From Patescibacteria group bacterium (GTDB lineage: Bacteria > Patescibacteriota > Microgenomatia > UBA1406), in contig JBAYJK010000001.1 of NCBI GenBank assembly GCA_041665145.1, forward strand, positions 421,629-485,628: a stretch of DNA of 64,000 nt. Direction: 5' to 3'. Of the stretch, positions 5,737 through 63,314 are shown piece after piece. Both the position numbers and the translations under genes were made by a program. Under the pieces are notes generated by a model that saw only the letters and a list, made by a program, of their open reading frames with translations, was not told where the DNA came from and did no database searches. Position 1 is the stretch's first letter. Every line of letters starts with the position of its first letter.

Positions 5737-6957
5737 TTACATAAACGAACTATAGCGAGGGTCAATATCTGCAAGTTTCGGAGCAGCACGCACTCCATCA
5801 ATAAATTCTTCCGCACCCAAATTCGCGTTTGCATGTCGGCATAAATCTATCGGGCAAGTGCTGTCTCTTTCTGTTCTATTCATCTGTTCAATAACTTCTC
5901 TGTGCTTAGAGCTCGACCATATATGGGACCAGGAATTAGTTCTAATATTACCGATAGACAAATTTTTCATGTCGATTTCCGGATTTCCCAAATACACTTC
6001 GCCGTCAGGGTCAATTGCTGCGAAATGGCTGTGAACTGCGTTATAGCAAGCACGCGTTCTCTGTACCGGTTTAGTTTGTTGCATTAATGTAGTAGCAAAT
6101 CTTGTTAGCAATGGATGGCTTGAGTAATCGGTAGATAACATATGAAAGAGCTCAGCTTTTTCCTGAAATTGAAGTTCCACAGATTGCTGGCCCTTACCAT
6201 CGCCATAGTTATAATCTTGGACAAGTCGTAAACCGACAGTATCTACTCCCAGGCTTTCAAAAAATTTAACCATCCGCGGGGTGAACATATAATTTTTCCG
6301 GTTAACCAACAGTTTTACGTTAATAACGAGATCAGGATTATATTGTTCACGAAGGGCAATAATATTTCTTATGTTTTCTACAACTCGATCAAATTTGTCC
6401 ACTTGTTCTGTGTCGTGAAATAGTTCCCGGGTATCTCCCGAACAGCTGATGGACAGTAGATTCACCGACTGTAGGTTTCTGGGGTCTTTTGTGAGTTTAT
6501 CTAGTCGAATTCCGTTTGTCTGAACAAAGTTTTGCGCAAACGTTGAAGCGAACCCAAGTGCCTCTACTATATGTGGCCACACCATCGGTTCTCCTCCACC
6601 GGCCCAATATGTTCCCCGCGTCATTCCGCCGCTTTTTAAGTCCTCTAAAAGTTTAAAGACCGTGTCACGAGGTAAATCAACCAGAGAAAGCAGGTTTCCG
6701 GGAGATATTGTACGAGCGCGCTCAATAGCAGCTTTGTTTGCATACCTATAGGAACAGTGAGTGCAATTTGCGTTACAACGCCAAGTTGGCATGATTTCTA
6801 CTGTCCATGGACCTCCTGGTGTTGGCTCATTGTCAGCTAAACGCAATTGACTTCGCACGTGTGCAATATATGCAGCCCGCTCAGCAAAGTTATATGTATT
6901 ACGACCGGAAGTATCGACTGCAACTGAAAGCGTGCCGTCGTTTGTATCAACACTCAT
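5737..6957 (-). CDS. Radical SAM enzyme of unknown specificity
   Basis: 406 aa. It has a CxxxCxxC cluster (WRCNANCTHCSY), a GGEP motif (WAGGGEPMVW), and a C-terminal region with three Cys (RACYNA...STCPIDLC) resembling a partial SPASM/twitch extension. Confidence 0.8.
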   Translation of the reverse strand: MSVDTNDGTLSVAVDTSGRNTYNFAERAAYIAHVRSQLRLADNEPTPGGPWTVEIMPTWRCNANCTHCSYRYANKAAIERARTISPGNLLSLVDLPRDTVFKLLEDLKSGGMTRGTYWAGGGEPMVWPHIVEALGFASTFAQNFVQTNGIRLDKLTKDPRNLQSVNLLSISCSGDTRELFHDTEQVDKFDRVVENIRNIIALREQYNPDLVINVKLLVNRKNYMFTPRMVKFFESLGVDTVGLRLVQDYNYGDGKGQQSVELQFQEKAELFHMLSTDYSSHPLLTRFATTLMQQTKPVQRTRACYNAVHSHFAAIDPDGEVYLGNPEIDMKNLSIGNIRTNSWSHIWSSSKHREVIEQMNRTERDSTCPIDLCRHANANLGAEEFIDGVRAAPKLADIDPRYSSFM

Positions 6958-15318: not shown

Positions 15319-16254
15319 ATGTCCCAGATTGTCGTCACATTTACGCTTGGCGTCATCATCCTTCTTCTTTCGACGCAGTGGTTTTTGAAGGCTGCGGAGC
15401 GCATGTCTTTAGTGCTCCGGGTATCTCCGCTCATCATCGGATTGACTGTTGTTTCAATCGGCACGTCACTGCCGGAACTTGCGGTTTCGGCTATCGCAGT
15501 CTTTAACGGCGATTCGGGATTGGCTACGGGCAATATTATTGGCTCCAACATTATCAATGTGTTTTTGGTGTTTGGTATCGGCATCCTGTTGGGGAAGCTT
15601 CGAGTGGGAACACAGAAAACACAGAAAAACATCTACATGATGTGTGGAATTACCGCAGTATTTCTGTTGTTGTATTTTTTGCATGTTCCGAATGTTTTGT
15701 CCGGCATCATCCTACTTCTTGCCGCTCTGGTCGTGTCCATACAGGAGTATGTATGGGGAATCAAAGGACGGAAATTCGAAGATGCAGTATTGTACCTGAA
15801 AAACAAGCGAAAACGCGGCATTCCCTTAGATATCATAATGATCGGATTTTCGGTTGTGGGAATTATAGCGGGTGGAATGTTGACGGTCTCGTCGGTAGAA
15901 CGGTTGTCGGCGTTATTGGATATATCAACCACCATACTCGGATTGTCCGTGACAGCGATAGCCACATCGCTTCCCGAGCTTCTGACGACATTATTCAGCG
16001 AAAAGGATCACGAAGAGAAAATTACGATCGGCAACCTGATGGGCAGCAACATCTACAATCTGGCTTTGATCGGCGGTCTGATTCTGCTGTTTTCCCCTTG
16101 GAAATCCGTCACTTCGTACGAATCCGTAATGCTCATACTTGCGACTTTTGCTTTTACAATTACCGTGGCGATATATAAGGGTAAAGTAATTCCGAAAGGG
16201 GTCGGCCTCATCTTTTTGGGTATGTGCGTGGGCTACCTTTTTTTCCTTCAGTGA
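15319..16254 (+). CDS. Ca2+/Na+ antiporter (CaCA family, YrbG-like)
   Basis: 311 aa polytopic protein with two alpha-repeat motifs (GTSLPELAVS...GNIIGSNIINV and ATSLPELLTT...GNLMGSNIYN). Confidence 0.8.
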   Translation: MSQIVVTFTLGVIILLLSTQWFLKAAERMSLVLRVSPLIIGLTVVSIGTSLPELAVSAIAVFNGDSGLATGNIIGSNIINVFLVFGIGILLGKLRVGTQKTQKNIYMMCGITAVFLLLYFLHVPNVLSGIILLLAALVVSIQEYVWGIKGRKFEDAVLYLKNKRKRGIPLDIIMIGFSVVGIIAGGMLTVSSVERLSALLDISTTILGLSVTAIATSLPELLTTLFSEKDHEEKITIGNLMGSNIYNLALIGGLILLFSPWKSVTSYESVMLILATFAFTITVAIYKGKVIPKGVGLIFLGMCVGYLFFLQ

Positions 16255-16324: not shown

Positions 16325-16416
16325 TTCAACTGTCCGTTGACGAGCTTCTGGGGAGTCTTACGGACAGTTAATCCCGATGAGCATGTGCGAATCGGGAAAC
16401 CTCTATAAATAATCTG

Positions 16417-16498
16417 TGCCGGGAAGAGGACTTGAACCTCCACGCCTTACGGCATACGCACCTCAAGCGTACGTGTATACCAATTTCACCATCCCGGC
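16417..16498 (-). tRNA. tRNA-Leu (anticodon GAG), class II with long variable arm
   Basis: Hand-folded as acceptor GCCGGGA/TCCCGGC, anticodon stem TACGC/GCGTA, loop TTGAGGT, variable arm TGCCGTAAGGCGT, and T-arm GGAGG-TTCAAGT-CCTCT. Length is 82 nt. Confidence 0.85.
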
Positions 16499-16504
16499 GA
16501 AAAT

Positions 16505-16595
16505 AAGCTTAAAGCTTAAATATTTAATATAAATAAAGCCTAAAGCTTAAATATTCAAGCTTTATTAAATCTTAAGCCTTTAAGCTTTATGCTTA
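16505..16595. repeat. Degenerate 7-bp tandem array (AAGCTTA family, ~13 units)
   Basis: AAGCTTA AAGCTTA AATATTT AATATAA ATAAAGC CTAAAGC TTAAATA TTCAAGC TTTATTA AATCTTA AGCCTTT AAGCTTT ATGCTTA. It runs from the tRNA-Leu 5' flank into the last codons of yqeY. Confidence 0.8.
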
Positions 16596-17014
16596 TTTAC
16601 CAACCCTGCTATTCTACTAGACTCAGCCACACCTTTCAACTCGCGAACAACCAAACCGATTTTTTGACCCATATTGGTTACTTCAGGATGAGCCTCAATT
16701 ACTGTTTTTATTCTGCTTAGAAGTTCATCTTCTGGCATCTCTGCAGGTACGTATGAGGAAAGCACTTTCATTTCATACTCATTTTCCTCCACTAGGTCTG
16801 TTCTTCCACCTTTTTCAAACATAAGCTTGGCGTCGTTAATGGACTTCAGTTGCTTTCGGATAACTGCGACAACCTCCTCGTCTGTAAGCTCTCTATGTTT
16901 ATCTATTTCGGCATTTTTGATTTGAGAAATCAGACTGCGCAAAATTGTCACCTTTTTGCTTTCTTTCGCTTTCAATGCAGTAATCATGTCCTGTTGAAGT
17001 TGTTGTTTTATCAT
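16580..17014 (-). CDS. yqeY: GatB/YqeY domain protein
   Basis: 144 aa. MIKQQLQQDMITALKAKESKKVTILRSLISQIKNAEIDK... is typical of the YqeY family. Confidence 0.85.
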   Translation of the reverse strand: MIKQQLQQDMITALKAKESKKVTILRSLISQIKNAEIDKHRELTDEEVVAVIRKQLKSINDAKLMFEKGGRTDLVEENEYEMKVLSSYVPAEMPEDELLSRIKTVIEAHPEVTNMGQKIGLVVRELKGVAESSRIAGLVNKHKA

Positions 17015-17021
17015 AGATGTT

Positions 17022-17030
17022 AGTATAACA
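17022..17030 (-). promoter_or_regulatory. Extended -10 (TGTTATACT on minus strand) 7 nt before the yqeY ATG
   Basis: Minus strand reads TGTTATACT-AACATCT-ATG(17014). No SD sequence is present. Confidence 0.45.
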
Positions 17031-17046
17031 TGAACATTCTCGACTG

Positions 17047-17081
17047 TTTAATCTTTATTCTTTAAGCTTTAAGCTTACCTT
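17047..17081. repeat. 7-bp tandem array (TTTAATC TTTATTC TTTAAGC TTTAAGC TTACCTT)
   Basis: Read directly from the sequence. It uses the same AAGCTT word family as 16505-16595, on the other side of yqeY. Confidence 0.75.
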
Positions 17082-17285
17082 TCTATCCTATAGTTGCCTT
17101 TTCACGGCAAAAGTGTTAAAATTATCACATATTCTTATGGGTGGTGTATTTGGTGGTATAACAAATATACATATCAAATACATACAAAGATTTTGGGCAC
17201 ATTGCAGCCTCAAATTTCACCCACAGTTCTTTAAAAAGAGAATCTACAACAATAAACACGCTCAGTTGGCGCGTTGAGGAAATAA

Positions 17286-17333
17286 GTCTTAAGGTCTAAG
17301 TGTCTGAATGTCTGAGAGTCTAAATGTCTCAAG
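17286..17333. repeat. 8-bp tandem array (GTCTTAAG GTCTAAGT GTCTGAAT GTCTGAGA GTCTAAAT GTCTCAAG)
   Basis: Read directly from the sequence. It lies at the left edge of the GC-rich island. Confidence 0.8.
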
Positions 17334-17425
17334 ATCAAGACAAGACTTGCTTTTTCGGCGCGCTGACTGAGTGCGGGCAGGTACGAGGGAGGCGACACTT
17401 AACAATAGGAAAGAAGGAATAGACA

Positions 17426-19036
17426 ATGAAAAAGAAGCGTTTGTTGACGGGCCTCACGGCCCTCGTAATCTGTGCCCTGCTGCTGGGCACAGTCGGCGGC
17501 GCATTTGCGCCGACCGTGAAAGCAGCCTCGAATGTTGTCGTCATTAAGCCAGCTCTGGCTACCAAGGGAATGATGCTTGCAGCGGATAGCCCGTTGCGGG
17601 CGCACACGACCGAGTTCGTGGCCTACGGGCCACCGACGGGGCCGGTGAAGCCGAATTGGACCTGCGACGGAGTTTTAAAGTCGCAGAATTCCAACGGTTC
17701 ATGGCGGGTTGAGCTAGTTGCCGCGGGGCTGTTTTTCCGGATTGTAGTAAACAATACCGAGAGCAGCCCTCAGGGCGGGGGCACACAAGAGTCGTTCATC
17801 TTCGACAGCGTGTGGTTGTCCGGGGGCCTGGTGTACCAGGGCCAGGCCTCGGATGACAGTATAAGCTGGACCGACACGGACGCCTGCGTGTTCCATGTGG
17901 GGTCGCTCACACAGACTCCCACGAGCACGTCGACGTCTACGCGGACGTCCACACCTACACGCACCCCGACCGTGACGCGCACGCCGACGGCGACGAAGAC
18001 GCCGGTCAACACGGCCACGCCGACGCCGTCTGAAACACCGACGGCGACACGGACGAATACCCCAACTCGGACGAATACTCCGACGCCGACCAACACGGTC
18101 ACGCCCAGCGTGACCCCGACACCCACGAGCACGAATACGCCGGTCAGTACAATCACGCCCAGCGTGACGCCGACCGTGACGCCAACTCGGACTCCGAGTC
18201 CTAGTCCGACAAACACACCGCCGTCTTCGACAAGTACGCCGGTCACGCCCAGTGCGACGCCGACCCGGACGAATACTCCGGTGTCGAGCGTAACGCCGAC
18301 ACTCACCTCGACGCCGAAGTCGAGCGTGACGCCAACCGATACGCCGCCGCCTTCGACGGGGACGCCGGTTGACACGGCCACGCCGACGGCGACGGGAACG
18401 AAGAACCCGCCTGTCGATCAGGTGGTTATCTTTGGTTCGTTCTGCGTGGCAAACCGCAAGGTTTTGACGTGGTCAGACCTTCTGCCTGCAGACAAGGGCG
18501 GATCGCCCCTTGGAAATATGTCGATCACTGGACTCTTCACGTTGAATGCCGGCGGCACCGAAGTTAAGGGCGCGCCTACGGCTAACAATGGATGGAGTGG
18601 CCCGATCTGGGCCAAAGCCGGAACCTGGAGGTCGGTTGGCACCCCCTTTACGTGGAAGCAAAACGAAGGGCGCGCTGAGTTTCCGATCATCGGCGCCTTC
18701 ACGGTGCCGAATGATTCGAGCGTTGCAATCAGTCAGATTGCGACGTGGACGGGCAAAGAGTGGACCCCGGCGACGGTGCTGTTGGACAGTCGGAGTTACC
18801 AGAAGATTGTTCTGGGGTTCGACTGCGGTGAGCCGACGGCGACGGAAACGCCGGTTCCGGGGGAGACCCCGGAAGCCGCCCCTGAAACGGGCGGGGCGGG
18901 GATGCCCCCGGTTCATCGGGGGGGGAACGACGGGCCGGTTGAAATCCCGCTGCTTCTGATTCTGGCAGCTGCCCTCGTCGTTCTGGCACCGGCATCGTTC
19001 GTGGTCTGGCGCTCGCGGCGCCCGATCAGGGACTAG
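17426..19036 (+). CDS. GC-rich secreted/surface protein with ~190-aa Thr/Pro/Ser linker and C-terminal PETG + TM + basic tail
   Basis: 536 aa with an N-terminal signal-like helix and an SD sequence (GGAAAGAAGGAA). The linker is [30 protein letters not shown]... The C-terminus is APETGGAG...[28 protein letters not shown]. Codons are ACG/CCG/GAC-rich, unlike the rest of the window. Confidence 0.7.
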
Positions 19037-19151
19037 TGGTTGGGTTCCCCCTGCCTGGGGAGCCTGACCAAGTGTTGTAGTTTCTCGGGCTGTATAGTTT
19101 AGCGCGTAGCGATTTTCTGCTACGAAAGCCGAACTATACAGCTAGGTAGTA

Positions 19152-19184
19152 GGAGGGGGGCGGAACACCGGTTCCGCCCTCTTC
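19152..19184 (+). terminator. GC-rich hairpin (GGCGGAAC-ACCG-GTTCCGCC, extendable) after the surface-protein gene
   Basis: An 8-bp perfect stem with flanking GAGG/CCTC, followed by an A/T-rich tract. It is preceded by a second long hairpin at 19089-19142 (11-bp outer stem GCTGTATAGTT/AACTATACAGC). Confidence 0.4.
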
Positions 19185-19234
19185 AACAAAATAAAACGGA
19201 TATAAAACAGTAAATAAATATTACTTTTTGTTTT

Positions 19235-20248
19235 ATGTCTGAACTAAAAAGAGAGGCATTTGATGCTCAGGCCCTTAATGACTTTACGTTAAGGCTGAAA
19301 GCAGAAGAAGCTTTTATAGCGGAAGAAAAAAGATTGGCTGCAGAAGCGGCCAGGCGTCGTATGGCTATAAAATGCTATTCTTTAGTTGCCGCAGCAACAC
19401 TTGGTTTGCTTGTTGCCTGGAGCTCTCTGTCTAGCTCGAACGGTTCTCATCCGTTTAGCGGAGCTCTCCCAGTACCAAGCAGATTGCCTATTTCCACAAT
19501 TGTTCCTACAAGTACTCCAACTGTTGAACCAACTATACGCGCTACTCCTGTCCGCACGCCAGCAAGAGTATCTCCCACAACTACCCTCGAGCCGACTGTA
19601 ACTCCAGTGGACACAAAACCGAATTATACGGTCGGTAGTATAGATTTTTCGCAAGAACTTCCAATTAGTATGTCTATTAAACTAACGGATGGTACTGAAT
19701 TCATGATTAACGAACAACTTGTTTTATATCATGATGGGATGACCGATTCCGAAAAAGCGGCTTTTAGTCAGAAAACTGCTGCGGGCACGGGTAAGGCAGT
19801 AATAAATTATACACATGAAGGCGGTGTGCTTATGTTTGGCCACTCAGGATGGATGCACGAAAAACCCCTGGAGTTTGAAGCGTTGCGTCACTATCTTGAA
19901 GGAGGGGATATAACACATCTCGATTCGATGTTATCTGAGAAAGAGCGTGCACAACGTATGAAAAATTTAGAAGGCGCAGCGGTGACAATAAATGGGAAAC
20001 TGTTTGTTATTGCAAACGTGACATATATACCATATGACCAGGTAGAGCCTGTTACCGCGAATATGCATGCAATGGTCAGTAACGTAGCGCGCGTGACCGG
20101 GGGGAAGAGTTCTCCATTTGCCGAATATTTGCAACAAGGCACACAAGTTTTGATTCCAATTTTCTGCGGAATCGGTCCTGGTAAGTCCCTTGACGAGATC
20201 GCAACGTATTCACGGTATGTTATAGCAGTTGAACCTCTTCAGCAATGA
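19235..20248 (+). CDS. Membrane-anchored sortase-like transpeptidase (tentative)
   Basis: 337 aa. A cytoplasmic N-terminus, one TM helix and a P/T linker are followed by a domain with sortase-like motifs in order: VLMFGHSGW (His), FEALRHYLEGG, VLIPIFCGIGP (Cys), YSRYVIAVEP (Arg). This is motif-level evidence only. Confidence 0.4.
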   Translation: MSELKREAFDAQALNDFTLRLKAEEAFIAEEKRLAAEAARRRMAIKCYSLVAAATLGLLVAWSSLSSSNGSHPFSGALPVPSRLPISTIVPTSTPTVEPTIRATPVRTPARVSPTTTLEPTVTPVDTKPNYTVGSIDFSQELPISMSIKLTDGTEFMINEQLVLYHDGMTDSEKAAFSQKTAAGTGKAVINYTHEGGVLMFGHSGWMHEKPLEFEALRHYLEGGDITHLDSMLSEKERAQRMKNLEGAAVTINGKLFVIANVTYIPYDQVEPVTANMHAMVSNVARVTGGKSSPFAEYLQQGTQVLIPIFCGIGPGKSLDEIATYSRYVIAVEPLQQ

Positions 20249-20823
20249 CGACAGAAAACAGTGTCGGTTCTACGGATATAGGTGCAAAGACTAGGGAAAA
20301 TCATGCGGCATGGCATGCTTTTGTGGCCGAACAAATGAAACCCCATTCAATGGCTATAAATATGCTGTGTGCGAAAGGACTTAGTGTGGGGGAAGCGGAG
20401 GACTTATTAATGCAAGTCGTTCTCGAATTGCAAACGCTTTATATTGCCCGCGGCGAGCTCATTATTCAACCGGTGCATTTACTGAGACATGTATTGAGAT
20501 TACGGTTTATCGACAAATATTATGCCCGTTCAAGTGATGATACACGAACTGTTTTATTGGATAAGACCTTGTTTAGAACGAGAGGTTATATAGATCGTTA
20601 TGTCGAAGATGCTGCCGAAGCGGCTTTCGAGCGCGATTTGTTATACAAATCAGTGAAAATGCTGCCAACTAATGAGCAGAGCGTGTTGCAACTGAATCTA
20701 AGTGGCTATAGTATTGCGGAAATTGCCGAATATATGAACATGACCGAGGGTAACGTGAGGGTTGTGTTGCATAGAGGTCGTAACCGCGTAAAGGCGTTAC
20801 TTATGGATAATAGATCTGTTTAA
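20245..20823 (+). CDS. ECF-type sigma-70 family factor
   Basis: 192 aa. It has a region 2-like segment (AEDLLMQVVLELQ...RFIDKYY) and a region 4 HTH (LPTNEQSVLQLNLSGYSIAEIAEYMNMTEGNVRVVLHRGRNRVK). Its start overlaps the preceding stop (ATGA). Confidence 0.7.
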   Translation: MTTENSVGSTDIGAKTRENHAAWHAFVAEQMKPHSMAINMLCAKGLSVGEAEDLLMQVVLELQTLYIARGELIIQPVHLLRHVLRLRFIDKYYARSSDDTRTVLLDKTLFRTRGYIDRYVEDAAEAAFERDLLYKSVKMLPTNEQSVLQLNLSGYSIAEIAEYMNMTEGNVRVVLHRGRNRVKALLMDNRSV

Positions 20824-22409: not shown

Positions 22410-23714
22410 TTATTTGCTTCCGGAGACGAGTGGCACGGTTATCGAGGCTCCTGAATCAGATTTTATAGTTGCTGCGGATACTTTACTGAAAATCCAGAAG
22501 CGGTTGTAGTAATCATTGGTCTTGCTGCGGTATTTCAAGTTTCCGTAGCCGGCGACACTCAGTTTACTGGCCCCTCTCCGATTACTCCGGACTCGAATTG
22601 TCATACGACTGATGAACCACCATTGCCGTGAAACATCAGCTTGCAAAACCGTTAATACTTCATCAACCGTCGGGGGAAGTGCCGGTGCTGTGGTAGCTGT
22701 TGGTGCTTGAGTCGTAATTGCCGTCGGCTGAGGTATCTCGGTTGGAATTGGAGTGTTTGACGGGACTGGAGTATTGGTTGGTATCGGTGTGTTCGTTGGT
22801 ATTGGAGTGTTAGTTGGTATTGGGGTTGGAGTTTTGGTAGGGGTCGGAGTCTTCGTTGGTGTTGGTGTCGGAGTTCTTGTTGGAGTGGGAGTATTTGTCA
22901 GGGTAGGTGTCGGAGTTTTTGTTGCGGTTGGAATAGGAGAGTTTGCTGGTCGCGGTGCAGTTGTTGCAGAAGGAGCAGGTGTACCGGAAGCTATCGGTAT
23001 CGGTGTGCTTGTTGGTGTGAGACTTAGCACAACAGGAGTTGTGAAGTTAAAAGACAAATTCTGTACTGCTCCTAAAACATTGTTCGGCATACGTGTTGTC
23101 GGGGTCGGTCCGCTCGCAACCGTAGGGACAATCATGGATTCGACCAAAACACTATTACCGGTTCCGTTTGTTGCGAAATCAAACGTCAAAGATCCTGCTC
23201 CTGTTTTTAGGGGGTGCAGTATTAATGTTGCAATTGTTTCTTTCGAATTGGTGAGTAAGGGATAATACAAACCCTGCGGATCCTGGAGATTCCGAGCTGT
23301 TACGGATATATCTACATATGACTTTCCTTGGGCATCCGTTGCAAAAATCGGATTGACAACCTTGTACTTCAAAAGACTGAGTGTGGCAGGATTTACATCT
23401 GTTGTATACAACGTGATGGGTGACGTGATTGTTATGAGCGTCGGGTCATAGAAAAAAACTGCCTCAGCTGTCTCAATTTTGTGTGCAAAGGAATTGACCA
23501 CGACGTCAACCCGAACATCCTGCCCTGCCGTAAAATTCCACACACCGCTCGCGTCGGCAGATCCAGTTGTAGGAACGAATGATAATGATGCATTTCCCGA
23601 TGCTTTTGTATTTGTTTTGAAATTAGATCCGAGAAAAAGAAGGCTTGCAATTATGCCAAGAGTAACCAGAACGGGGACAAGCACAGATCCGCTGCGGAGT
23701 TTCAGTATGTTCAT
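22410..23714 (-). CDS. Secreted/anchored protein: cohesin-like N-terminal domain + TP-rich linker + ~100-aa C-terminal domain
   Basis: 434 aa with an N-terminal TM/signal. Residues ~42-200 show a cohesin-like pattern ([33 protein letters not shown] ... [22 protein letters not shown]). The linker is [47 protein letters not shown]. Confidence 0.45.
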
Positions 23715-23753
23715 GTTAATGATAATTGTAATATATATTTACTATTTCGTAAT

Positions 23754-26678
23754 TTATTTTCCGTAATTTCCCAGCAACATTGTTAAATCTATCACATTAA
23801 CCTTTCCTGTGTCGTCTAAATTTGCAGTCACCTCCGTCGTTCCTAATTTAGAAAGCAGATATGAAAGATCCAATGCGCTGACCTTACCGGTACAATCGAT
23901 GTTTCCAAGAGGTTGGCAATGGACAGGAGCGGTAGTTACGGTTACTGGCCATGGAGTGTTGGTGGCCTGAGGAGCTATCCCACTTGTGGGTGCTTCAATT
24001 ACCGTGACCAAATTCTGAATATAATACAAGTCGCCGCGAGGAACGCTTGGAACATCGAGATATTGGTATAACTCTTCCCGATTAAGGTTGAAAATTTGCC
24101 GTTCAGTTTGGAATAGCGACCAGTAATCATACGGCGATTGCATCAGGCTTTCGCCGAACGTTTCTTCAAACCGCGAGACAAACCAGTAAGGGATGTTCTC
24201 TATATAATTTTTTCTGGCAGCTTCAATTTTCGTCAGGGCATTCTGCCGGAGATAACTTCCCAGTTCCGGAGTCATGTATATGAAGTTTCGTGACGAAGCA
24301 ATGCTGCGACCGGCATCATGCGAGTCTCCTCCCCAGGGCTGATCCTTTAAAAAAGCGCTGGCACGCAAGGCAAGTAATCTATTCAATTCATTACGATGTG
24401 TCGTGTTCTCTGTCTGAGTGGGATAGGCGATTTTTTGCAATCCGAGCAGTCCATAGTAACCCGCAATCCATGCATTATGAACCGGTGGGTTCTCGGCAAG
24501 ATACGCATTATTCGGAGCAGAACCGACATGCCCGCCGTTTATGAGTCCATCATAAATCTCTTTTGCTCCACCGAATGTTTGTGCATATTTCCATAGCTCA
24601 TAAAAAGTAAAGGGTGGGCGGTTTTCGTCACTGCTTTCACCATTTCCCCAGCCCTCAAAGTTGTAATTACGATAATTATTCGGTAAAGAAGTCATATATT
24701 GCACAACATCTGTTTGGGGTAAGATGAAATCTTCACGGGGCGCACCCTGTTTCCAACCATTGTGGTCGTATGTTAGTGGGGAATAGTTTTGCAGCTCAAG
24801 CGCAAGATACGACTTTACCTTTGTTTGCATGGTGGTGTCAAGATGAGGATAGGCAAGCGTCAGTGCATACAACGTATCAGCAGTGCTGTGCCAGTAGTCG
24901 GCCATCTTGTCGCCGCGCACCTGACCGAGCGCATACCCATTCAGTCCCATTTGGCCATATCCTGGACGCAAATGTGGTCCCGCATCAAGCATTTTCTGTA
25001 TTTCAGCGGTAAGCTTTGTTTTTAAAGCATTTACATCTACAGAAGATTGTGGGGTAGTGGCTTCAATCGACCCGATTCGCGTAAGCAGTTTTCTTCCGCC
25101 ACTTGCCGAAAAAGCTAAGATCGCGTTACTGCGATGAAAATAGAGTCTGCCAGAGTAGGGAACTGGAGCATTCTGATCACCATGATATCCGTACTCTCCA
25201 TTAACGTCTCCGAAAACTTTTACGGCGTTAGATTCGTGTGTACCGGTGCTGTGTGCATCATACCCGGGAGCAACTGTCGCAAGCTCCTGACCCTCGTTGT
25301 AATAGTTTATAGCGCTTTCTCCATTTCCCAATCTGTCGAAACTTCCTGCCTTACGATCACAGCATTTATTGAAATAAACTCGGTTGCCACCAATCGAATA
25401 ACTTTGCGGCTCGTCGATTGCGTCCACGCTGCTTGTCGGTATGGTGAGGTAGTTTGTTCCCAGCTTCCAACCGGCAATTTGGGACCACTCAAGCTGATAA
25501 TTATTAAACGTGTAAATTGTTCCATCGGGAGCAACGGCAGCAGGAGATCTGTTTCCCGAAGTTGTCCCGGTATTCATGAGCGGAGCGTATTCTGGTTTCC
25601 CGTTGCCATTGAAGTCATATGTCACTTCTTTTCCATCAGTCAAATTTATAAGGTGATAAGAACGCCGCGAGGGGTTACTTTCCAGGTAATTAAACGCCCG
25701 GCTGGCATTCATATTTCGACCAGTCATTGTGCCAAGCGGAGTCCCTAACGCGGTACCCTCTGGCCATAGACCGTGGTCACCCTTGTAAAAGTCTTCTCCC
25801 GTTGAGCCGGGGGGTCCGGGCATTTGGAGTGTTCGAATTCCTCTGCTGCTGGGGAAAATAATAACATTCCCGCTTATCGCACCCCACCAAGAATGAAAAC
25901 CGTCTGCTGCGGGAAGTTTTTCCGATTTCCACACAAGCGCTCCCGAATCTGCCCGCAATGCATACGCATACGCGTCGTTTGCAGCAAAGTACACGGTATT
26001 ATTCTTATATGTGGCGGAAAAATGAATCGGTCCTCCTGTTTTAAACTGCCATGCTAGTTTTCCACGCAATGCCTGGTCAGCATAATCATGTGCATAGAGT
26101 GCATACATCGTACCGTCGCGATTTCCGGCATACACGCGTTGATTAATGACCAATGGATTAGTGTCGAATCCTGCCCCTCCTTCAAATGTCCAAAAAAGCT
26201 TCGTATTCACTTTTACCTGATTACCCCGAGTGTCAGTGGCAGTAGGCAGTGTTGCGGTATCGGGGTTTGCATCTATTGCGTATAGCTTGCGGTCAAAAGC
26301 ACCAAAGTATGCAACCCCGTTAACAACTGTCGGAGAATTACCCAAGGGTAATTTTGTCGGGAAAATCCATTTAAGAGCGCCGGTTGTGGAGTCGAATGCA
26401 TACAAACCTTTGGCCGTTGGAACATAAATTATTCCTTGTACGGCAATTATTTGTGCTTTGTTGGGAATATGCGGGTCGATAATTCTGTACCACTCCGGAC
26501 TAAGCTGTCCGTCTATTTGCTCCGGCGTGTATGATGTCCGTTCTGGATTTGCTGCTGACATGTACCAATCAGTTTTGGTCTGCGCATGAGCATATGGGCC
26601 GAACCGGTAAAGCAGATAACCGGTAACGGCAACCATAAAACTCACTACAACAATAATAGATTTTTGTTTATTTCCCAT
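23754..26678 (-). CDS. Large extracellular protein: PQQ-like beta-propeller + helical C-terminal region + dockerin-like tail
   Basis: 974 aa with an N-terminal TM. It has repeated propeller blades (GIIYVPTAKGLYAFDSTTGALKWIF, VNGVAYFGAFDRKLYAIDAN, QRVYAGNRDGTMYAL...). The tail is CQPLGNIDCTGKVSALDLSYLLSKLGTTEVTANLDDTGKVNVIDLTMLLGNYGK. Confidence 0.6.
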   Translation of the reverse strand: MGNKQKSIIVVVSFMVAVTGYLLYRFGPYAHAQTKTDWYMSAANPERTSYTPEQIDGQLSPEWYRIIDPHIPNKAQIIAVQGIIYVPTAKGLYAFDSTTGALKWIFPTKLPLGNSPTVVNGVAYFGAFDRKLYAIDANPDTATLPTATDTRGNQVKVNTKLFWTFEGGAGFDTNPLVINQRVYAGNRDGTMYALYAHDYADQALRGKLAWQFKTGGPIHFSATYKNNTVYFAANDAYAYALRADSGALVWKSEKLPAADGFHSWWGAISGNVIIFPSSRGIRTLQMPGPPGSTGEDFYKGDHGLWPEGTALGTPLGTMTGRNMNASRAFNYLESNPSRRSYHLINLTDGKEVTYDFNGNGKPEYAPLMNTGTTSGNRSPAAVAPDGTIYTFNNYQLEWSQIAGWKLGTNYLTIPTSSVDAIDEPQSYSIGGNRVYFNKCCDRKAGSFDRLGNGESAINYYNEGQELATVAPGYDAHSTGTHESNAVKVFGDVNGEYGYHGDQNAPVPYSGRLYFHRSNAILAFSASGGRKLLTRIGSIEATTPQSSVDVNALKTKLTAEIQKMLDAGPHLRPGYGQMGLNGYALGQVRGDKMADYWHSTADTLYALTLAYPHLDTTMQTKVKSYLALELQNYSPLTYDHNGWKQGAPREDFILPQTDVVQYMTSLPNNYRNYNFEGWGNGESSDENRPPFTFYELWKYAQTFGGAKEIYDGLINGGHVGSAPNNAYLAENPPVHNAWIAGYYGLLGLQKIAYPTQTENTTHRNELNRLLALRASAFLKDQPWGGDSHDAGRSIASSRNFIYMTPELGSYLRQNALTKIEAARKNYIENIPYWFVSRFEETFGESLMQSPYDYWSLFQTERQIFNLNREELYQYLDVPSVPRGDLYYIQNLVTVIEAPTSGIAPQATNTPWPVTVTTAPVHCQPLGNIDCTGKVSALDLSYLLSKLGTTEVTANLDDTGKVNVIDLTMLLGNYGK

Positions 26679-29274
26679 AATTTCCCAACAATATAGTCAA
26701 ATCTAACGAATTTACCGTTCCCATATCATTAAGATTTGCTGCGTGGTCGTTTGATCCATACTTTGACACGAGATACGTTAAATCTAACGCACTTACTTTG
26801 CCGAGACAATCAATGTTTCCAAGGGGAGAGCAGTGCGATGGCGTTACGGTAGTGACCGGAATTGGGGTTGATGATGGCGTTGTGGTTGTTCTGTCAGGAT
26901 CATAGAACTTGTACGCAATGTCTTTTGCTGTGGAAACAGGGAAAATTAATTGTCCGTTTGTCACGGCAAATTTGGTCGGGCTTGTGGAATGGGTTCCTGA
27001 CCGTGTATCCCAAACTTCCTGAGTATAATTGCCGTTGGGTACCGAAATCGTGAGCGATCCTGCTGCTGCGGTATTATAATTCGGATTTTTCCATGTATTG
27101 TTTTTGTTATCCACCCATACAAGAACCCTTCCGGTTTTTGAGTCTCTTGCTCCAAACGCCCGAAGATTGGCATTGGAAGTTTGAATTATTCCAATTCCAT
27201 TTGTTGAATTGCCATCCGTACCTATATCGACATAGTTCCCGTTTGAGAGGTGTTCTCCGGCAATATACGATTCATAATTTTTGGAGTACTTAAAAACGCT
27301 ATTTGTAGATGTGGGAAAGTACTTGTTGTATTTTGTGTCGTTCGGGTCGAGTTGATCTGAGAATGTTTCCCATAACCTAGGGTACCATTCGCCGTCACAC
27401 GAAAATCCGAGTACTCCAATTTGCGCCCATATCTTTTTCAGGTAATATGTGCCGGTAGTCTCTTGAGGTATACCGTTTGTGACACCGTCTTTATCACCGA
27501 GTTGCGGTCCGGTACCTTCTTTGGCAACTCCGGTTTCACCTCTTATGACAGGTTTCGTAACACCGATATCCTGCGCATATTCCTTGAAGCGGGTATAACA
27601 TTGTCTCACATTTAGTACGGTGTCCTGCCATGTTGCGGATACTACGTCACAGGCTGCTGGGTTCGCCGCGCAATCAATTGTTCTCGTGTCAGCGTACCAA
27701 TGTTTGTCCGCATAATCCATATCGGGATCTGCCCAATAAGACATGGACAAACCGTTCCAATGCCAAAAGGAATTACTCATTAAAACGCGTCTCGGAGATA
27801 GTGTGTGAATGTAGTTTGCAAGATCAAGGGACATATCAAACCCATTTTGGCTTCCGACGTCGTTTTCGTTGGCAAGTTCTAGGGAATGCAGGGAAGTTGA
27901 ATACGCCCAGCGGGCAACAAAGTATCGTACATATGCCTTTTTAAGCCAGTAGGAAGCGGAATTTAACGGCGAATAGAAATTACTTAAATTCCATTTTCCC
28001 GTTGTGCCATCGGGTAAAATCTGATCGAAGATCATGTCGTTTTTGTGAAAGAGGGTCAGTTTGTTGTATATACCTTTTTCTTCCGATTTTCGCAGTACTT
28101 CATCCAGTTTGGCGGCAGCTATTTGATCTACGGTTTCAAACGTATTCGGATCACCCCGCTCGATAAGATTCGGTCCCCAAACTCCCGGAGAAATCTGCTG
28201 TCGGAGTTCAATCGATCCGAGAGAAATAGTTCCGCTTGTGTTGTTTCCGTCATCCTCACTAATACCGTCATGAAGATAAACAGTGAGTGCTGAATTATTC
28301 GACGTGTTGGTAATCGTCAGTGAGTAACTTTGCCACCCTCCATTGGCAGATATTGTCTGACTCACCTTATTCTGGTTGGAAAAATAAAGTTCAGGAATAA
28401 ATCGTTTTTGACCGTCTATTTTTGCCCGTACCTCCAGTTTGTATGTGGCGCCATCTTTTGCAGGTATGTTTTGACCGGTATAGTAATAAGGTTCGAAACT
28501 AAACAGTTTCCCTTTTGCCGTATCCGGATTTTCAACTGTCGCCCAGGTCGGTCCATAACCCCACGACATGCCAAGTTCATCACCAAACGGGACAATCACC
28601 CCATCTTCGCCTGTTGGAAACCAACGGATAAAACGGATACCGTTATTTCCCAAAGCATCTGCACGGGACCTGATCGTGTTTAAACTGGAACCGAAATTTG
28701 TTGTAATAAGCGGATATGCAAATGTTGTGCCGTCGGAGAATTCAAAAAAACGCGGGTCGGTTTTACTAACGGTAATAAACCCGTGCCCTGTGGGAGAAGT
28801 AGCGGTAAACGTAGATTGGTTGCTTTCGATTGAGCCCGAGCTATCTTGAACTCTCACTCTGTATGCCCACGTGCCTGTCTGATCTGGAGCAAATCTACAT
28901 CTCCACTCGGGAGAGCCAGTAGGGAGTAGTTTAGCGACATCCGATCCTTTGCGGACCTCTTCAACAGGTTGATAGTAGAAACAGGGAACGGTCTTGGGTG
29001 AGGCAGAAAGGGAAGTTCCGGGAGAGAGCATCATATCGACACTTACACCAGTTCCTCTACCACGAGAACTGGGTGCGTTTGTGTCATAAGGGAAAAATTT
29101 ATTTTGAGCGGTTGTTGATATATCAAATGATGCTTCGAATTTTCCGTATTTCGGAACAGTTGCAGATCCCACGCTCGTCGGTTGTCTTACAAAACTTGGA
29201 GCGGCATAAACATGATTTACCGGGAACAACGCTAAAAATACAAAAACCACCAAAGCGGCAAATTTTTTTATCAT
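26668..29274 (-). CDS. Putative glycoside hydrolase (clan GH-A-like TIM barrel, tentative) with dockerin-like tail
   Basis: 868 aa with a signal peptide and an N-terminal Ig-like region. It has an HSLELANEND (NE acid/base-like) motif. The tail is CSPLGNIDCLGKVSALDLTYLVSKYGSNDHAANLNDMGTVNSLDLTILLGNYGK. It overlaps the next gene by 11 nt. Confidence 0.5.
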   Translation of the reverse strand: MIKKFAALVVFVFLALFPVNHVYAAPSFVRQPTSVGSATVPKYGKFEASFDISTTAQNKFFPYDTNAPSSRGRGTGVSVDMMLSPGTSLSASPKTVPCFYYQPVEEVRKGSDVAKLLPTGSPEWRCRFAPDQTGTWAYRVRVQDSSGSIESNQSTFTATSPTGHGFITVSKTDPRFFEFSDGTTFAYPLITTNFGSSLNTIRSRADALGNNGIRFIRWFPTGEDGVIVPFGDELGMSWGYGPTWATVENPDTAKGKLFSFEPYYYTGQNIPAKDGATYKLEVRAKIDGQKRFIPELYFSNQNKVSQTISANGGWQSYSLTITNTSNNSALTVYLHDGISEDDGNNTSGTISLGSIELRQQISPGVWGPNLIERGDPNTFETVDQIAAAKLDEVLRKSEEKGIYNKLTLFHKNDMIFDQILPDGTTGKWNLSNFYSPLNSASYWLKKAYVRYFVARWAYSTSLHSLELANENDVGSQNGFDMSLDLANYIHTLSPRRVLMSNSFWHWNGLSMSYWADPDMDYADKHWYADTRTIDCAANPAACDVVSATWQDTVLNVRQCYTRFKEYAQDIGVTKPVIRGETGVAKEGTGPQLGDKDGVTNGIPQETTGTYYLKKIWAQIGVLGFSCDGEWYPRLWETFSDQLDPNDTKYNKYFPTSTNSVFKYSKNYESYIAGEHLSNGNYVDIGTDGNSTNGIGIIQTSNANLRAFGARDSKTGRVLVWVDNKNNTWKNPNYNTAAAGSLTISVPNGNYTQEVWDTRSGTHSTSPTKFAVTNGQLIFPVSTAKDIAYKFYDPDRTTTTPSSTPIPVTTVTPSHCSPLGNIDCLGKVSALDLTYLVSKYGSNDHAANLNDMGTVNSLDLTILLGNYGK

Positions 29275-29839: not shown

Positions 29840-29865
29840 AAAATGTGGGAAGGGGAAGTGTGGAT

Positions 29866-29899
29866 GGCCAGACCGCGTATCTCAATACGCGGTCTGGCC
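29866..29899. other. Perfect 15-bp-stem hairpin (GGCCAGACCGCGTAT-CTCA-ATACGCGGTCTGGCC)
   Basis: Read directly from the sequence. It is the longest perfect palindrome noticed in the window. It could be a terminator for minus-strand transcription or the terminal helix of the structured element. Confidence 0.7.
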
Positions 29900-30535
29900 T
29901 GAGAGACTAAGGGCTCTCACATCCCTGTCATGGTTGGCCCTTTCTTAAGGGGCCCGTCGGTAAAGGTCAATCGCCGCAAGACGTGAAGGAATTGGTCGTG
30001 AAACCAAAACTTAACACGGAGCTCACCTCCTTTCAACCTGTGCCGATCATGACATCTTGGGGGCATTTCAGCCCCCACGTTATTTGGCGGCACGTGGCCG
30101 CCACATCCAAAAAACAATGCAAAGAGTCAACGAGGGGACTCTTGTTCCCTTTGGCGTCCCTAAAGGACACGCCCGTTCACCCAGGTCTTACATGGCTATG
30201 AACTATTGAACATAGTTCCTCCTTTCTGTGGGTCCCGCAGATGCGGGACAGGCCATCCATTTCGCGCGGTTGGTACTCGCGTCACATTGAGGAACCGCGC
30301 GTTCCTCAACTCCATCCCGCCAATCGGCAGGAAGGTTAAGCCACCTCGCGGCAGCCAAGATACCGGGTGTTTGCGCACAAGAGTGCGTTTACTTCCTCTC
30401 CGCGAGCATGAGGAAGAACCCGACTCTGCGTTATGTGAGGGCACAGGCATTAGTGCCCGCACACCGCCAGAGTATGCGCATTGTAATACCGGTAGACTGT
30501 CAAATCAAGCGAAGTTACGCAGGGAGTAAGTAGCG
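29866..30535. ncRNA. Candidate large structured noncoding element, class unknown, strand unresolved
   Basis: ~700 bp with no credible ORF. At least nine stems of 6-15 perfect bp occur: 29866-29899, 29900-29919, 30059-30076, 30086-30102, 30200-30218, 30232-30249, 30264-30300 or 30289-30307, 30392-30416, 30435-30462. Hand-counted G+C is 32/60 (29941-30000) and 37/60 (30241-30300), versus 27/60 and 29/60 in flanking coding lines. Confidence 0.35.
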
Positions 30536-30543
30536 AGTATGTA

Positions 30544-52006: not shown

Positions 52007-54301
52007 ATGAAACAAAAATATATAGTTTGGTTTGAGGAGGTTAACAAACATGATATCCCGTTGGTAGGAGGCAAAGGTGCAAATTTGGGCGAGATGACCA
52101 GTGCTGGTTTGCCAATCCCTTATGGATTTATCCTGACCTCGCATGCCTACTTTTACTTTATCGAACATCAAGGAATTAAGTCGCACATTGATCGTGTACT
52201 GAAAACGCTTAACCACCAGGACCCCGCAAATCTGGCTCATGTTTCCAAGGAGATAAAAAAGATAATTATCGGAACCGCTATACCGTCAGAGCTGACCCAA
52301 CCTATAGCTTCATATTACGAGCAGATATATGAAAAAGAAGAGAAAACCAAGCATTTAGTCAAAAAGCTTTCGAAACGACTATATGCTGCCTATGATCCGG
52401 CGCTGGTGGCAGTGAGAAGTAGTGCTACAGCCGAGGATCTTCCCGGCGCTTCATTTGCTGGTCAACAGGAAACATATCTGAACGTGAAAGGCGAGGTTAA
52501 TCTTTTGCATAAGATTCGTGAATGTTGGGCATCGCTCTTTACGGAACGAGCCATATTCTATCGTGCAGAGAAAGGGTTTGATCACTTTAAAGTAGGACTT
52601 GCTGCTGTTGTGCAACGCATGGTCCAGTCAGATAAGTCTGGTATCATGTTTACGGTTGATCCGGTCAACAATGACAAGAAGACAATCATCATCGAATCAA
52701 TATTCGGGTTGGGTGAATATATTGTTCAGGGTAAAGTTACACCGGATCAGTATTTAATAAGCAAATATAGTTTGGATATCAAAGAAAAGAAAGTAGGTTT
52801 TCAGGATGTTAAATACATAAAAAAAGGCACCAAGAATATTGAGGTGAAGTTAACCAAATCCTTGGGGAGCCGACAAAAAATTTCCGACAAGGAAATCGTG
52901 GAGGTAGCACGTCTCGGTAAGAAAATCGAAAATCATTACTATTTTCCACAGGACATCGAGTGGGCTATTGAAGGGGACAAGGTGTTTATTACACAATCTC
53001 GTCCGATCACGACGCTTGATAACAAACAAATTTCCAATGACCAGCAGATCGCCGTCACTCAGGAAGTTTTTCTTACCGGCGACCCGGCATCCCCCGGAAT
53101 AACGACCGGGACTGTTGTTCTACTTAAGTCACCGAAAGAAATAAGCAGAGTGAAACAGGGTGATATATTGTTGGCTTCTCAAACAAATCCTGACTATGTG
53201 CCTGCTATGAAACGTGCCTGTGCCATAATTACGGAGCATGGAGGAAGAACATCTCATGCGGCAATTGTTTCCCGCGAGTTAGGAATTCCCTGTGTCGTAG
53301 GTGTTGCAGACGCGATGTCAAAGATCAAAGAAGGTGATGTGTTAACGGTTAATGGCGCAAATGGACAAATTTATAAGGGCAAAGTGGAAATACACATGAA
53401 AGCAGAAGTTCATAAAGCATATAAGACAAAAACCAAAATGTACATCAATCTCGCGGAACCTGAAAAAGCCGAAGAAATGGCGAAGCTTCCGGTGCAGGGT
53501 GTCGGTTTACTTCGAGCCGAGTTTATGATTGCAAATATCGGCGAACACCCGAAAAGTCTAATGCAGAAAGGCAAGGGTTATGTGTTTACGAACAGATTAA
53601 AGCGAGATCTTACAACAATTTGCCAGGCATTTTATCCGCGCAAAGTCGTCTATCGTGCGACTGATTTTAAGACGAACGAGTACAGGTTCCTTAAAGGAGG
53701 AAAGGATTTCGAGCCAGAAGAGGCGAATCCAATGTTGGGATACAGGGGCACGTATCGTTATATTTCGGACCCTGAGGAATTCGGACTTGAAATCGATGCA
53801 ATCAGGAAGGTTCGGGAGGAAGGACTGACTAATTTGCATCTCATGCTGCCGTTTGTGAGGAGTCCGATGCATTTGCGTCAAGCAAAGGAATTTGTGCAAA
53901 ATAGGGGATTGACGTTTAATGAACGTTTTAAGCTTTGGATGATGGTGGAGTTGCCGGTAAACGTTATTCTTATCGAGGATTTTCTTAAAGAGGGAATTCA
54001 AGGTGTCTCGATCGGAAGTAATGATCTTACCATGCTTCTTCTGGGTACGGACAGGGATAATGAAACTGTTGCCCCGCTTTTCGATGAGCGTAACGAAGCG
54101 GTGTATTGGGCATTAAAGAAAACGATTCATGCATGCAACAATTACGGAGTGACTTCATCAATTTGCGGCCAGTCCGTCTCCGATTATTCTGAGATACTCA
54201 ATGTGGTGGTTAAAAGCGGCATCACGAGCGTTTCAATAAATCCGGACGCCGTGTGGCATGTCAGCGAATCAATTAACCAGCTAGAAGAGCATGGATCTTA
54301 A
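52007..54301 (+). CDS. ppsA: Phosphoenolpyruvate synthase (pyruvate, water dikinase)
   Basis: 764 aa with an N-terminal ATP-grasp (GGKGANLGEM), a phospho-His domain (GGRTSHAAIVSRELGIPCVVG) and a C-terminal PEP-utilising TIM barrel. Confidence 0.9.
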   Translation: MKQKYIVWFEEVNKHDIPLVGGKGANLGEMTSAGLPIPYGFILTSHAYFYFIEHQGIKSHIDRVLKTLNHQDPANLAHVSKEIKKIIIGTAIPSELTQPIASYYEQIYEKEEKTKHLVKKLSKRLYAAYDPALVAVRSSATAEDLPGASFAGQQETYLNVKGEVNLLHKIRECWASLFTERAIFYRAEKGFDHFKVGLAAVVQRMVQSDKSGIMFTVDPVNNDKKTIIIESIFGLGEYIVQGKVTPDQYLISKYSLDIKEKKVGFQDVKYIKKGTKNIEVKLTKSLGSRQKISDKEIVEVARLGKKIENHYYFPQDIEWAIEGDKVFITQSRPITTLDNKQISNDQQIAVTQEVFLTGDPASPGITTGTVVLLKSPKEISRVKQGDILLASQTNPDYVPAMKRACAIITEHGGRTSHAAIVSRELGIPCVVGVADAMSKIKEGDVLTVNGANGQIYKGKVEIHMKAEVHKAYKTKTKMYINLAEPEKAEEMAKLPVQGVGLLRAEFMIANIGEHPKSLMQKGKGYVFTNRLKRDLTTICQAFYPRKVVYRATDFKTNEYRFLKGGKDFEPEEANPMLGYRGTYRYISDPEEFGLEIDAIRKVREEGLTNLHLMLPFVRSPMHLRQAKEFVQNRGLTFNERFKLWMMVELPVNVILIEDFLKEGIQGVSIGSNDLTMLLLGTDRDNETVAPLFDERNEAVYWALKKTIHACNNYGVTSSICGQSVSDYSEILNVVVKSGITSVSINPDAVWHVSESINQLEEHGS

Positions 54302-62627: not shown

Positions 62628-63314
62628 TTATTCAGAAGAGCGTATTCCTAACACAACACCACTTACTCTCGGATTGAATGTAGGAGTTGAGTTTCTATCG
62701 CAGGCCTTTTTAATGCTCAGAAGCAATAGAAGACCATCAATTTGATGTGCCGCCGGCGTAGATTGTTCACGGGTGCGGATACTGACACATCGAACATCGT
62801 GCGCTTCAGGATAACCGGCAAGTAAATCGGCGAGCATAGCTTGCATTGAGGATGGGGGATTGAAACGTGCTTGCTCAACAATTGGTCGTCTACTTCCATT
62901 TCTCATATAGTATTTAGTGAGTAGGTTTACCAAAAAATGCAGATTGCGTCTGATTTGTTGAGTAAGATTACGCTCTAAATATTCAGCAGGAAGTGCCTGC
63001 ATAGGACCATTTATTTCACTATTTCGTGCTTGAGCTACAAAACCGAGATGTGTGGCAAAATCTAATATGCTTAAACCCGCTACATATTGTTGCAGATGAT
63101 CTGCCTTTGGTACGGCTACCTCCAGAGTCACCGTCGGAACTGACATAGGAGTTCCTCTGACCTCTGTTGGTGTGGTTGAGATAACTGGATGTCTGCCAAA
63201 AAAAGGCTCAAAAGCTTTCGGATATAGTCGTCCTTCTCCTTCGAACTCGACTCCCTGTCCAGTCCCTTCAAACAGTTCAACGAGTTCTTTTGGAGGTAGA
63301 ATTGTACACTTCAT
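62628..63314 (-). CDS. Hypothetical protein, paralog of the adjacent 224-aa ORF
   Basis: 228 aa. Its stop lies 1 nt before the next gene's ATG, and it has its own leaderless-type promoter. No known motif was recognised. Confidence 0.55.
   Translation of the reverse strand: MKCTILPPKELVELFEGTGQGVEFEGEGRLYPKAFEPFFGRHPVISTTPTEVRGTPMSVPTVTLEVAVPKADHLQQYVAGLSILDFATHLGFVAQARNSEINGPMQALPAEYLERNLTQQIRRNLHFLVNLLTKYYMRNGSRRPIVEQARFNPPSSMQAMLADLLAGYPEAHDVRCVSIRTREQSTPAAHQIDGLLLLLSIKKACDRNSTPTFNPRVSGVVLGIRSSE

Follow-up and report, generated by a model that had tools for sequence, protein, structure and literature searches.

The stretch of DNA analysed here (the window, 64 kb in length) belongs to a Patescibacteria genome of about 0.9 Mb, a member of the Candidate Phyla Radiation (CPR) from landfill-adjacent groundwater with a G+C content of 43.5%. 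All coordinates are positions in this 64-kb window, and the rest of the window served as background for G+C comparisons. An island of about 1.85 kb was found at positions 17340-19185, with a G+C content of 61% compared to 43.5% in the rest of the window. It occupies the divergent spacer between yqeY (16580-17014, minus strand) and a plus-strand gene encoding a 337-aa protein, the end of which overlaps the start of a gene for a sigma factor of the extracytoplasmic function (ECF) type (19235-20823, plus strand; Sigma70_r4_2, E 4e-11). Judged from its signals, the island is a single putative transcription unit, consisting of a GC-rich leader, one open reading frame (ORF) of 536 aa and three strong 3' hairpins, and the edges of the island coincide with those of this complete gene unit.

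The 5' leader is 86 nt long (17340-17425, plus strand) and ends in a purine tract. A motif resembling a Shine-Dalgarno (SD) sequence, AAGGA, is located at 17414-17418, 7 nt ahead of the ATG of the island gene. This gene (17426-19036, plus strand) is the only one in the island, with a G+C content of 0.53, 0.62 and 0.73 at the first, second and third codon position, respectively. Its 536-aa product, as given in the original prediction, was confirmed by the ORF list, and the gene is called whole in the European Nucleotide Archive (ENA) and Logan records. The accompanying claim that all six frames are open was overstated. The coding frame is the only island frame without internal stops; two minus-strand frames stay open over long distances (252 and 215 codons), and the remaining three carry 14 to 26 stops each, similar to a resident gene. 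A shadow ORF of 203 aa with Gly/Val repeats (17770-18381, minus strand) is the antisense of the linker region described below and not a gene. The annotation of the Joint Genome Institute (JGI) nevertheless contains this antisense ORF and a C-terminal fragment of 204 aa (18422-19036, plus strand) instead of the 536-aa gene, an annotation error that results from the unusual base composition here. It illustrates that gene prediction tuned to the composition of the host can go wrong in islets of this kind.

Downstream of the gene, a first hairpin with a 14-bp stem (19037-19070, plus strand) begins 1 nt past the stop codon. The second (19088-19143, plus strand) is long and imperfect, reading GCTGTATAGTT...AACTATACAGC, and the third (19153-19184, plus strand), with a GC-rich stem of 14 bp, forms the right edge of the island, the G+C content being 0.16 directly beyond it. 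The three hairpins jointly gave a folding z-score of -7.8. The third failed the terminator scan because it is not followed by a T-run. No second copy of the hairpin at 19088-19143 was present in the window, nor was it found in viral contigs, and Rfam gave no match at the island edges. The two hairpins with which the island had been said to end were both recovered, the one at 19037-19070 having been overlooked.

The composition break is sharp. Over positions 17335-19195 the G+C content is 0.613, while other windows of 1.86 kb average 0.435±0.019 with a maximum of 0.489, a difference of about 9 standard deviations. The tetranucleotide distance of the island is 0.054 compared to 0.018±0.002 (maximum 0.025), or about 16 standard deviations. 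No further 1-kb bin in the 64 kb exceeds a G+C content of 0.51, making this the sole island of such kind in the window. A maximum-likelihood fit with two change points put the left edge at 17445 and the right edge at 19179, and the log-likelihood rose by 99.6. When 40-nt steps were inspected by eye, the G+C content climbed at about 17340-17360, dipped at the purine-rich ribosome-binding stretch and dropped to 0.15-0.2 immediately past 19184. The GC-rich island of the original prediction was thus recovered, and the four hand counts given with it (43/60, 38/60, 25/60 and 29/60) were exact on recount. Its left limit had been placed at an 8-bp repeat array. This array is real, with six GTCT at exact 8-bp spacing (17286-17329) followed by AGAC copies at 17337-17346, and it is unique in the window (four overlapping pattern matches against 0.19 expected), but it lies outside the island. 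Since its G+C content of about 0.38 is of the resident type, the rise in G+C begins some 10-25 nt past the array, which merely flanks the island. The array was also considered as a promoter for an ECF sigma factor and rejected, as the spacings were wrong and there was no enrichment. In the spacer to the left of the array, both JGI and ENA call a 46-aa ORF of host-type composition (17137-17277, plus strand), with a promoter-like site before it (17094-17122) and a hairpin after it (17255-17275).

Hydropathy analysis of the 536-aa protein showed two hydrophobic segments only, residues 5-32 and 501-530. The first is part of a predicted signal peptide (residues ~1-34) with an MKKKR start, a hydrophobic core and AFA/VKA motifs, which precedes an N-terminal domain (residues ~35-161) containing Cys80 and Cys154; the two are encoded by 17426-17908 on the plus strand. 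They are followed by a Thr/Pro/Ser linker or stalk of 165 aa (residues 162-326; 17909-18403, plus strand), 74% of which is Thr, Pro or Ser and the DNA of which has a degenerate periodicity of 12/18 nt. The C-terminal domain (residues 327-468; 18404-18829, plus strand) is rich in Trp and Gly, with Cys340 and Cys467, and an all-beta structure is predicted for it. The remaining part (18830-19033, plus strand) consists of a Pro/Glu/Gly spacer with the motif APETGG (residues 469-505), a putative transmembrane helix (residues ~506-528, with a Kyte-Doolittle maximum of 2.8 at residue 509) and a basic tail, RSRRPIRD (residues 529-536). The linker had been estimated at about 190 aa, which is too long, and of the proposed domain limits those of the N domain (~30-160) were close, whereas the C domain starts at about residue 327 and not at about 350. 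No relationship was found between the N and C domains. Single-sequence AlphaFold2 models of the two were all-beta and unusable, with a predicted local distance difference test (pLDDT) of 35 and 38; the C domain was run from residue 361, so that its first 34 residues were missing.

This architecture is most likely that of a secreted surface protein, tethered to the membrane at its C-terminus. If expressed, the protein would be exported through its N-terminal signal peptide, and the C-terminal helix and basic tail would keep it attached to the cell. The C domain would then lie near the membrane and the N domain far out on the extended Thr/Pro stalk of 165 residues. With this layout it is probably a stalked protein for surface display or similar to an adhesin, and it would be a natural candidate for cell-cell contact in a CPR bacterium that presumably lives attached to other cells.

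The island gene was compared with 45 resident ORFs of the window. Its G+C content at third codon positions (GC3) is 0.734, compared to 0.425±0.045 with a maximum of 0.564 for the resident ORFs, a shift of about 7 standard deviations. GC3 is high in all four parts of the gene (N part 0.74, linker 0.76, C domain 0.68 and tail 0.77), and the Thr/Pro linker is therefore not the cause. The untranslated parts are GC-rich as well, with 0.51 for the leader and 0.56 for the 3' hairpin region, while the adjoining native spacers have 0.34 (17015-17339) and 0.16. This points to the mutational background of a donor and not to selection at the codon level. Outside the linker, the fraction of Gly, Ala, Arg and Pro (GARP) is 0.32, above the resident maximum of 0.294, and that of Phe, Tyr, Met, Ile, Asn and Lys (FYMINK) is 0.19, below the resident minimum of 0.211. 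An amino-acid composition of this high-GC type implies that the gene spent a long time in a GC-rich genome. Its start is preceded by a classical SD sequence, while an SD-like motif was present in only four of the 45 resident genes; a TATAAT-like box 6-10 nt ahead of the ATG was found in nine.

The horizontal acquisition from a high-GC donor advanced in the original prediction is supported by GC3, by the G+C content of the untranslated parts, by the amino-acid composition and by the SD start, and it accounts best for the measurements as a whole. The island is probably a recent, unameliorated acquisition of a single gene, about 1.85 kb in length, from a GC-rich organism. Judged from GC3, the donor genome would be much richer in G+C than the host, at roughly 60-65%, and the complete transcription unit, from the SD-containing leader through the ORF to the last of the three 3' hairpins, would have arrived together. 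All evidence for a transfer comes from composition.

Independently of the island, the scarcity of SD motifs and the TATAAT-like boxes at the starts of resident genes, with examples at 5737-6957 (minus strand), 15319-16254 (plus strand), 52007-54301 (plus strand) and 62628-63314 (minus strand), suggest that leaderless or SD-independent initiation is widespread in this genome.

A resident Thr/Pro linker is found in the 434-aa product of the gene at 22410-23714 (minus strand). In the island linker, 40 of 66 Thr codons are ACG and 24 of 35 Pro codons are CCG. The resident linker uses ACA (15), ACT (13), ACC (8) and ACG (5) for Thr and CCA (16), CCG (11), CCT (7) and CCC (2) for Pro, which confirms the codon contrast reported earlier. 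The two genes had been described as the same protein idea in two codon dialects. The architecture is indeed in common, but homology is not: no similarity between the 536-aa and 434-aa proteins was found beyond the low-complexity linker. A guess at the donor from Thr/Pro codon preferences was given up, because comparison with GC-rich loci was not discriminating and the picking of ORFs was unreliable there.

These codon data also bear on the alternative of a native, lineage-specific gene without any recent gain, in which the high G+C content would be held locally by selection on codons or mRNA structure, or by a mutational or repair bias. Proteins with Thr/Pro linkers are common in the genome (the 434-aa and 337-aa products), and CCG is the commonest Pro codon in resident genes too. 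In addition, the weak dinucleotide signal, the missing donor and the orphan neighbour, all discussed below, fit a native gene. However, the non-repetitive domains are equally high in GC3, and the leader and 3' hairpin region are GC-rich beside spacers of 0.16-0.34. Neither the high-GC type of amino-acid composition nor a start signal unlike that of the resident genes is expected here, and no resident gene is so shifted, the other Thr/Pro-linker gene included. A native origin is therefore considered unlikely.

Several results weigh against a horizontal acquisition. The dinucleotide signature, once normalised for G+C, is only about 2.3 standard deviations off the background and below the maximum of the window. 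No donor or close homologue was found among about 15 billion proteins, so that the transfer has no phylogenetic support. The 337-aa neighbour, which has a normal G+C content, is equally orphan: it matched only itself, with no relatives in the GTDB genomes or the large protein set. Orphan status is thus no evidence of origin and reflects the poor sampling of the lineage. Neither an integrase, a transposase nor another mobility gene was detected in the island (ORF list, Pfam and NCBIfam; PHROGs on the domain segments). There is no target-site duplication, the best edge-to-edge alignment scoring 19 compared to 14.5±2.2 (maximum 23) for shuffled sequences, and no repeat family or terminal repeat joins the island edges. 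An island-free close relative was not found in the GTDB species genomes or the JGI metagenomes. Finally, the read sets of the three assemblies may overlap; with 100% identity, the assemblies are a test of the assemblers and not of the biology.

For the acquisition, the lack of a recombinase, target duplication or terminal repeat makes illegitimate recombination after DNA uptake the default guess. As to an empty site, the ComM relatives from GTDB genomes and from JGI metagenomes do not exceed 52% identity, one fragment excepted. This fragment, the nearest relative of the host that was found, is a metagenomic contig of 1184 bp (L027, Ga0209324_10242850), the ComM C-terminus of which is 77% identical. 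Downstream of ComM, it carries an ORF of 146 aa on the opposite strand in place of the sigma-factor gene, indicating that local synteny is not conserved even at this distance.

The search for relatives was carried out in several ways. Word-seeded searches of 5.8 billion clusters with the N domain, and with the C domain plus tail, matched only the 536-aa protein itself. An exhaustive phmmer search with the N and C domains, leaving out the linker, against 1.84 billion representatives yielded one plausible remote relative, P0004, which matches the N domain (E 1e-4 library-wide, 37% identity over 101 aa) with both Cys residues aligned. P0004 has its own signal peptide at the start and is encoded on a 1.8-kb contig with 63% G+C, where its neighbours are short, overlapping, unannotated genes. 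This would fit a GC-rich source lineage, although such slender evidence does not allow one to be named. Two weaker phmmer matches, P0003 and P0005, are large repeat proteins that have a ‘W-T-D’ stretch in common and an uninformative Pfam content. The full 536-aa protein gave no match in Pfam or NCBIfam, including profiles for Ig-like and fibronectin-III domains, and the two domain segments gave none in PHROGs. The sole significant PDB match, 8zvk (E 9e-6), lies entirely within the linker (residues 195-265); neither globular domain matched a PDB entry. An exact-sequence cluster look-up did not return the 536-aa protein.

A sub-case of transfer is delivery of the island by a mobile element or phage, as a moron or cassette, the remainder of the element having been lost or never integrated. 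As in phage morons and integron cassettes, a self-contained unit is present between resident genes, namely a single ORF equipped with a start signal of its own and followed by strong 3' hairpins, and the short, overlapping, unannotated genes around P0004 would fit such a source. On the other hand, searches with the island protein in plasmids, phages and viral contigs gave no match, in line with the PHROGs result, the hairpin sequence is not in the viral contigs, and the edges are without recombinase or repeat. Phage or integron context, attC-type core sites and an integrase are all lacking at the island, unlike in morons and cassettes. The hairpin at 19088-19143 was examined as an integron attC site, for which an inverse core RYYYAAC is expected at the 5' side and a core GTTRRRY at the 3' side of an imperfect hairpin. 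It was rejected, as it reads ATAGTT...AACTAT, with GTT first and AAC last on both strands, which is the reverse of the attC order. Insertion at a tRNA or tmRNA 3' end, as in classical genomic islands, is not seen: the tRNA-Leu gene (GAG, 16416-16498, minus strand) is 0.84 kb away, with the island on its 5' side and the resident yqeY in between. An origin as mobile cargo is regarded as quite unlikely.

The same sequence and junctions, base for base, were present in three assemblies made with different software. The locus is carried by a JGI contig of 918,908 bp (Ga0376277_0000024) from IMG metagenome 3300037810, listed in a landfill study as coming from groundwater well GW1 at a site in Southern Ontario (10.1101/2024.05.30.596742), and the island sequence is identical in an ENA MEGAHIT k141 contig of 104,789 bp and a Logan contig of 23,754 bp. 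These data bear on a possible artefact of assembly or binning, by which a fragment of a GC-rich organism was spliced into the Patescibacteria contig. The source is metagenomic, the three assemblies may derive from the same reads, and two of the contigs extend only about 0.9 kb beyond the left edge of the island, that of MEGAHIT starting at 16401, 15 nt beyond the 3' end of tRNA-Leu, and that of Logan at 16462, inside this gene. The JGI contig reads through at this point. These starts hint at a graph branch, due to shared tRNA sequence or to strain variation, and since yqeY lies in between, it is not linked to the island. None of the three contigs breaks at an island edge. Moreover, three assemblers with differing k-mer strategies, one of them MEGAHIT at k=141, are base-identical over both edges, and an artefact would require two separate false joins at a distance of 1.85 kb, each coinciding precisely with one end of a complete gene unit in an intergenic spacer. 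An artefact is thus extremely improbable, and a chimera is excluded for practical purposes, on the basis of assembly agreement and not of reads.

If the acquisition is real, it is a clean and very recent case of a streamlined CPR genome of about 0.9 Mb gaining a complete foreign gene for a surface protein. Surface proteins are the likeliest mediators of contact with partner cells, and the gene is therefore a candidate in studies of how such cells attach to a host; it may also point to a partner or neighbour rich in G+C. A more specific scenario, which appears very doubtful, is that the gene was captured from the GC-rich partner of a presumably episymbiotic Patescibacterium and now functions as a long-stalked adhesin recognising the surface of this partner. 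It would then be a host-derived attachment factor, marking the partner lineage as well as a new family of CPR host-recognition proteins. Beyond the surface protein and the annotation error, the locus is an ordinary compositional islet with an orphan gene, and the event is of an ordinary kind.

Some other features of the window were recorded. The 337-aa protein next to the island is annotated by NCBI as a hypothetical protein. By eye, it has a short segment at the N-terminus, a single hydrophobic helix and a stretch of Thr and Pro, and it could be the anti-sigma partner of the ECF-type sigma factor. Three large genes in a row (22410-29274, minus strand) encode products of 434, 974 and 868 aa that are apparently secreted, as judged by eye from their N-termini; among these, only the 434-aa product has a Thr/Pro linker. 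The 974-aa product matches PQQ/BamB-like beta-propellers and contains the C-terminal motif ‘D.TGKV..(I/L)DL..LL’ twice, a repeat that we take to be reminiscent of dockerin, while Pfam reported no dockerin. In a region of about 700 nt (29840-30543), ORFs do not exceed 107 aa and the G+C content is 0.53-0.57 compared to the background of 0.435. Folded as RNA, this region is strongly structured and gave z-scores of -7.4 (plus strand) and -5.7 (minus strand), with a perfect 15-bp hairpin near 29866-29899. It had no Rfam match at gathering score or E≤1 and may be an unclassified structured RNA.

Several known systems resemble the island gene or its product in part. Secreted multidomain enzymes, such as actinobacterial cellulases, have Pro/Thr linkers. 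The island protein likewise has a low-complexity Thr/Pro spacer between two folded domains, encoded by GC-rich codons, but unlike the cellulases it contains no catalytic or carbohydrate-binding domain that could be found in Pfam, NCBIfam or PDB. With the LPXTG surface proteins that sortases anchor in monoderm bacteria, the wall-spanning regions of which are rich in Pro and Thr, it shares a predicted signal peptide, globular domains, a long Pro/Thr stalk and a C-terminal end in which a motif is followed by a hydrophobic helix and a positively charged tail. The motif itself is different, being APETGG (APETG and not LPXTG) and located 18 residues ahead of the helix instead of within a few residues of it. 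The NCBIfam models for LPXTG anchors gave no match with the 536-aa protein at E≤1, and no sortase turned up in the window, although it was not specifically searched for.

As for classical genomic islands, both composition and codon usage deviate from those of the host, but the island is far smaller and without mobility genes. Horizontal transfer into groundwater Patescibacteria has been documented, as islands and as single genes, with up to 13% of the genome length ascribed to transfer, mostly between Patescibacteria (PMC12455944). In those cases putative donor-recipient pairs were given, unlike for the island gene, which has no identifiable donor or homologue. In its other properties it is similar to them: a single foreign-looking gene, within the streamlined genome of a CPR bacterium from a habitat of the aquifer type, that stands out by its deviation in G+C content and oligonucleotide composition.

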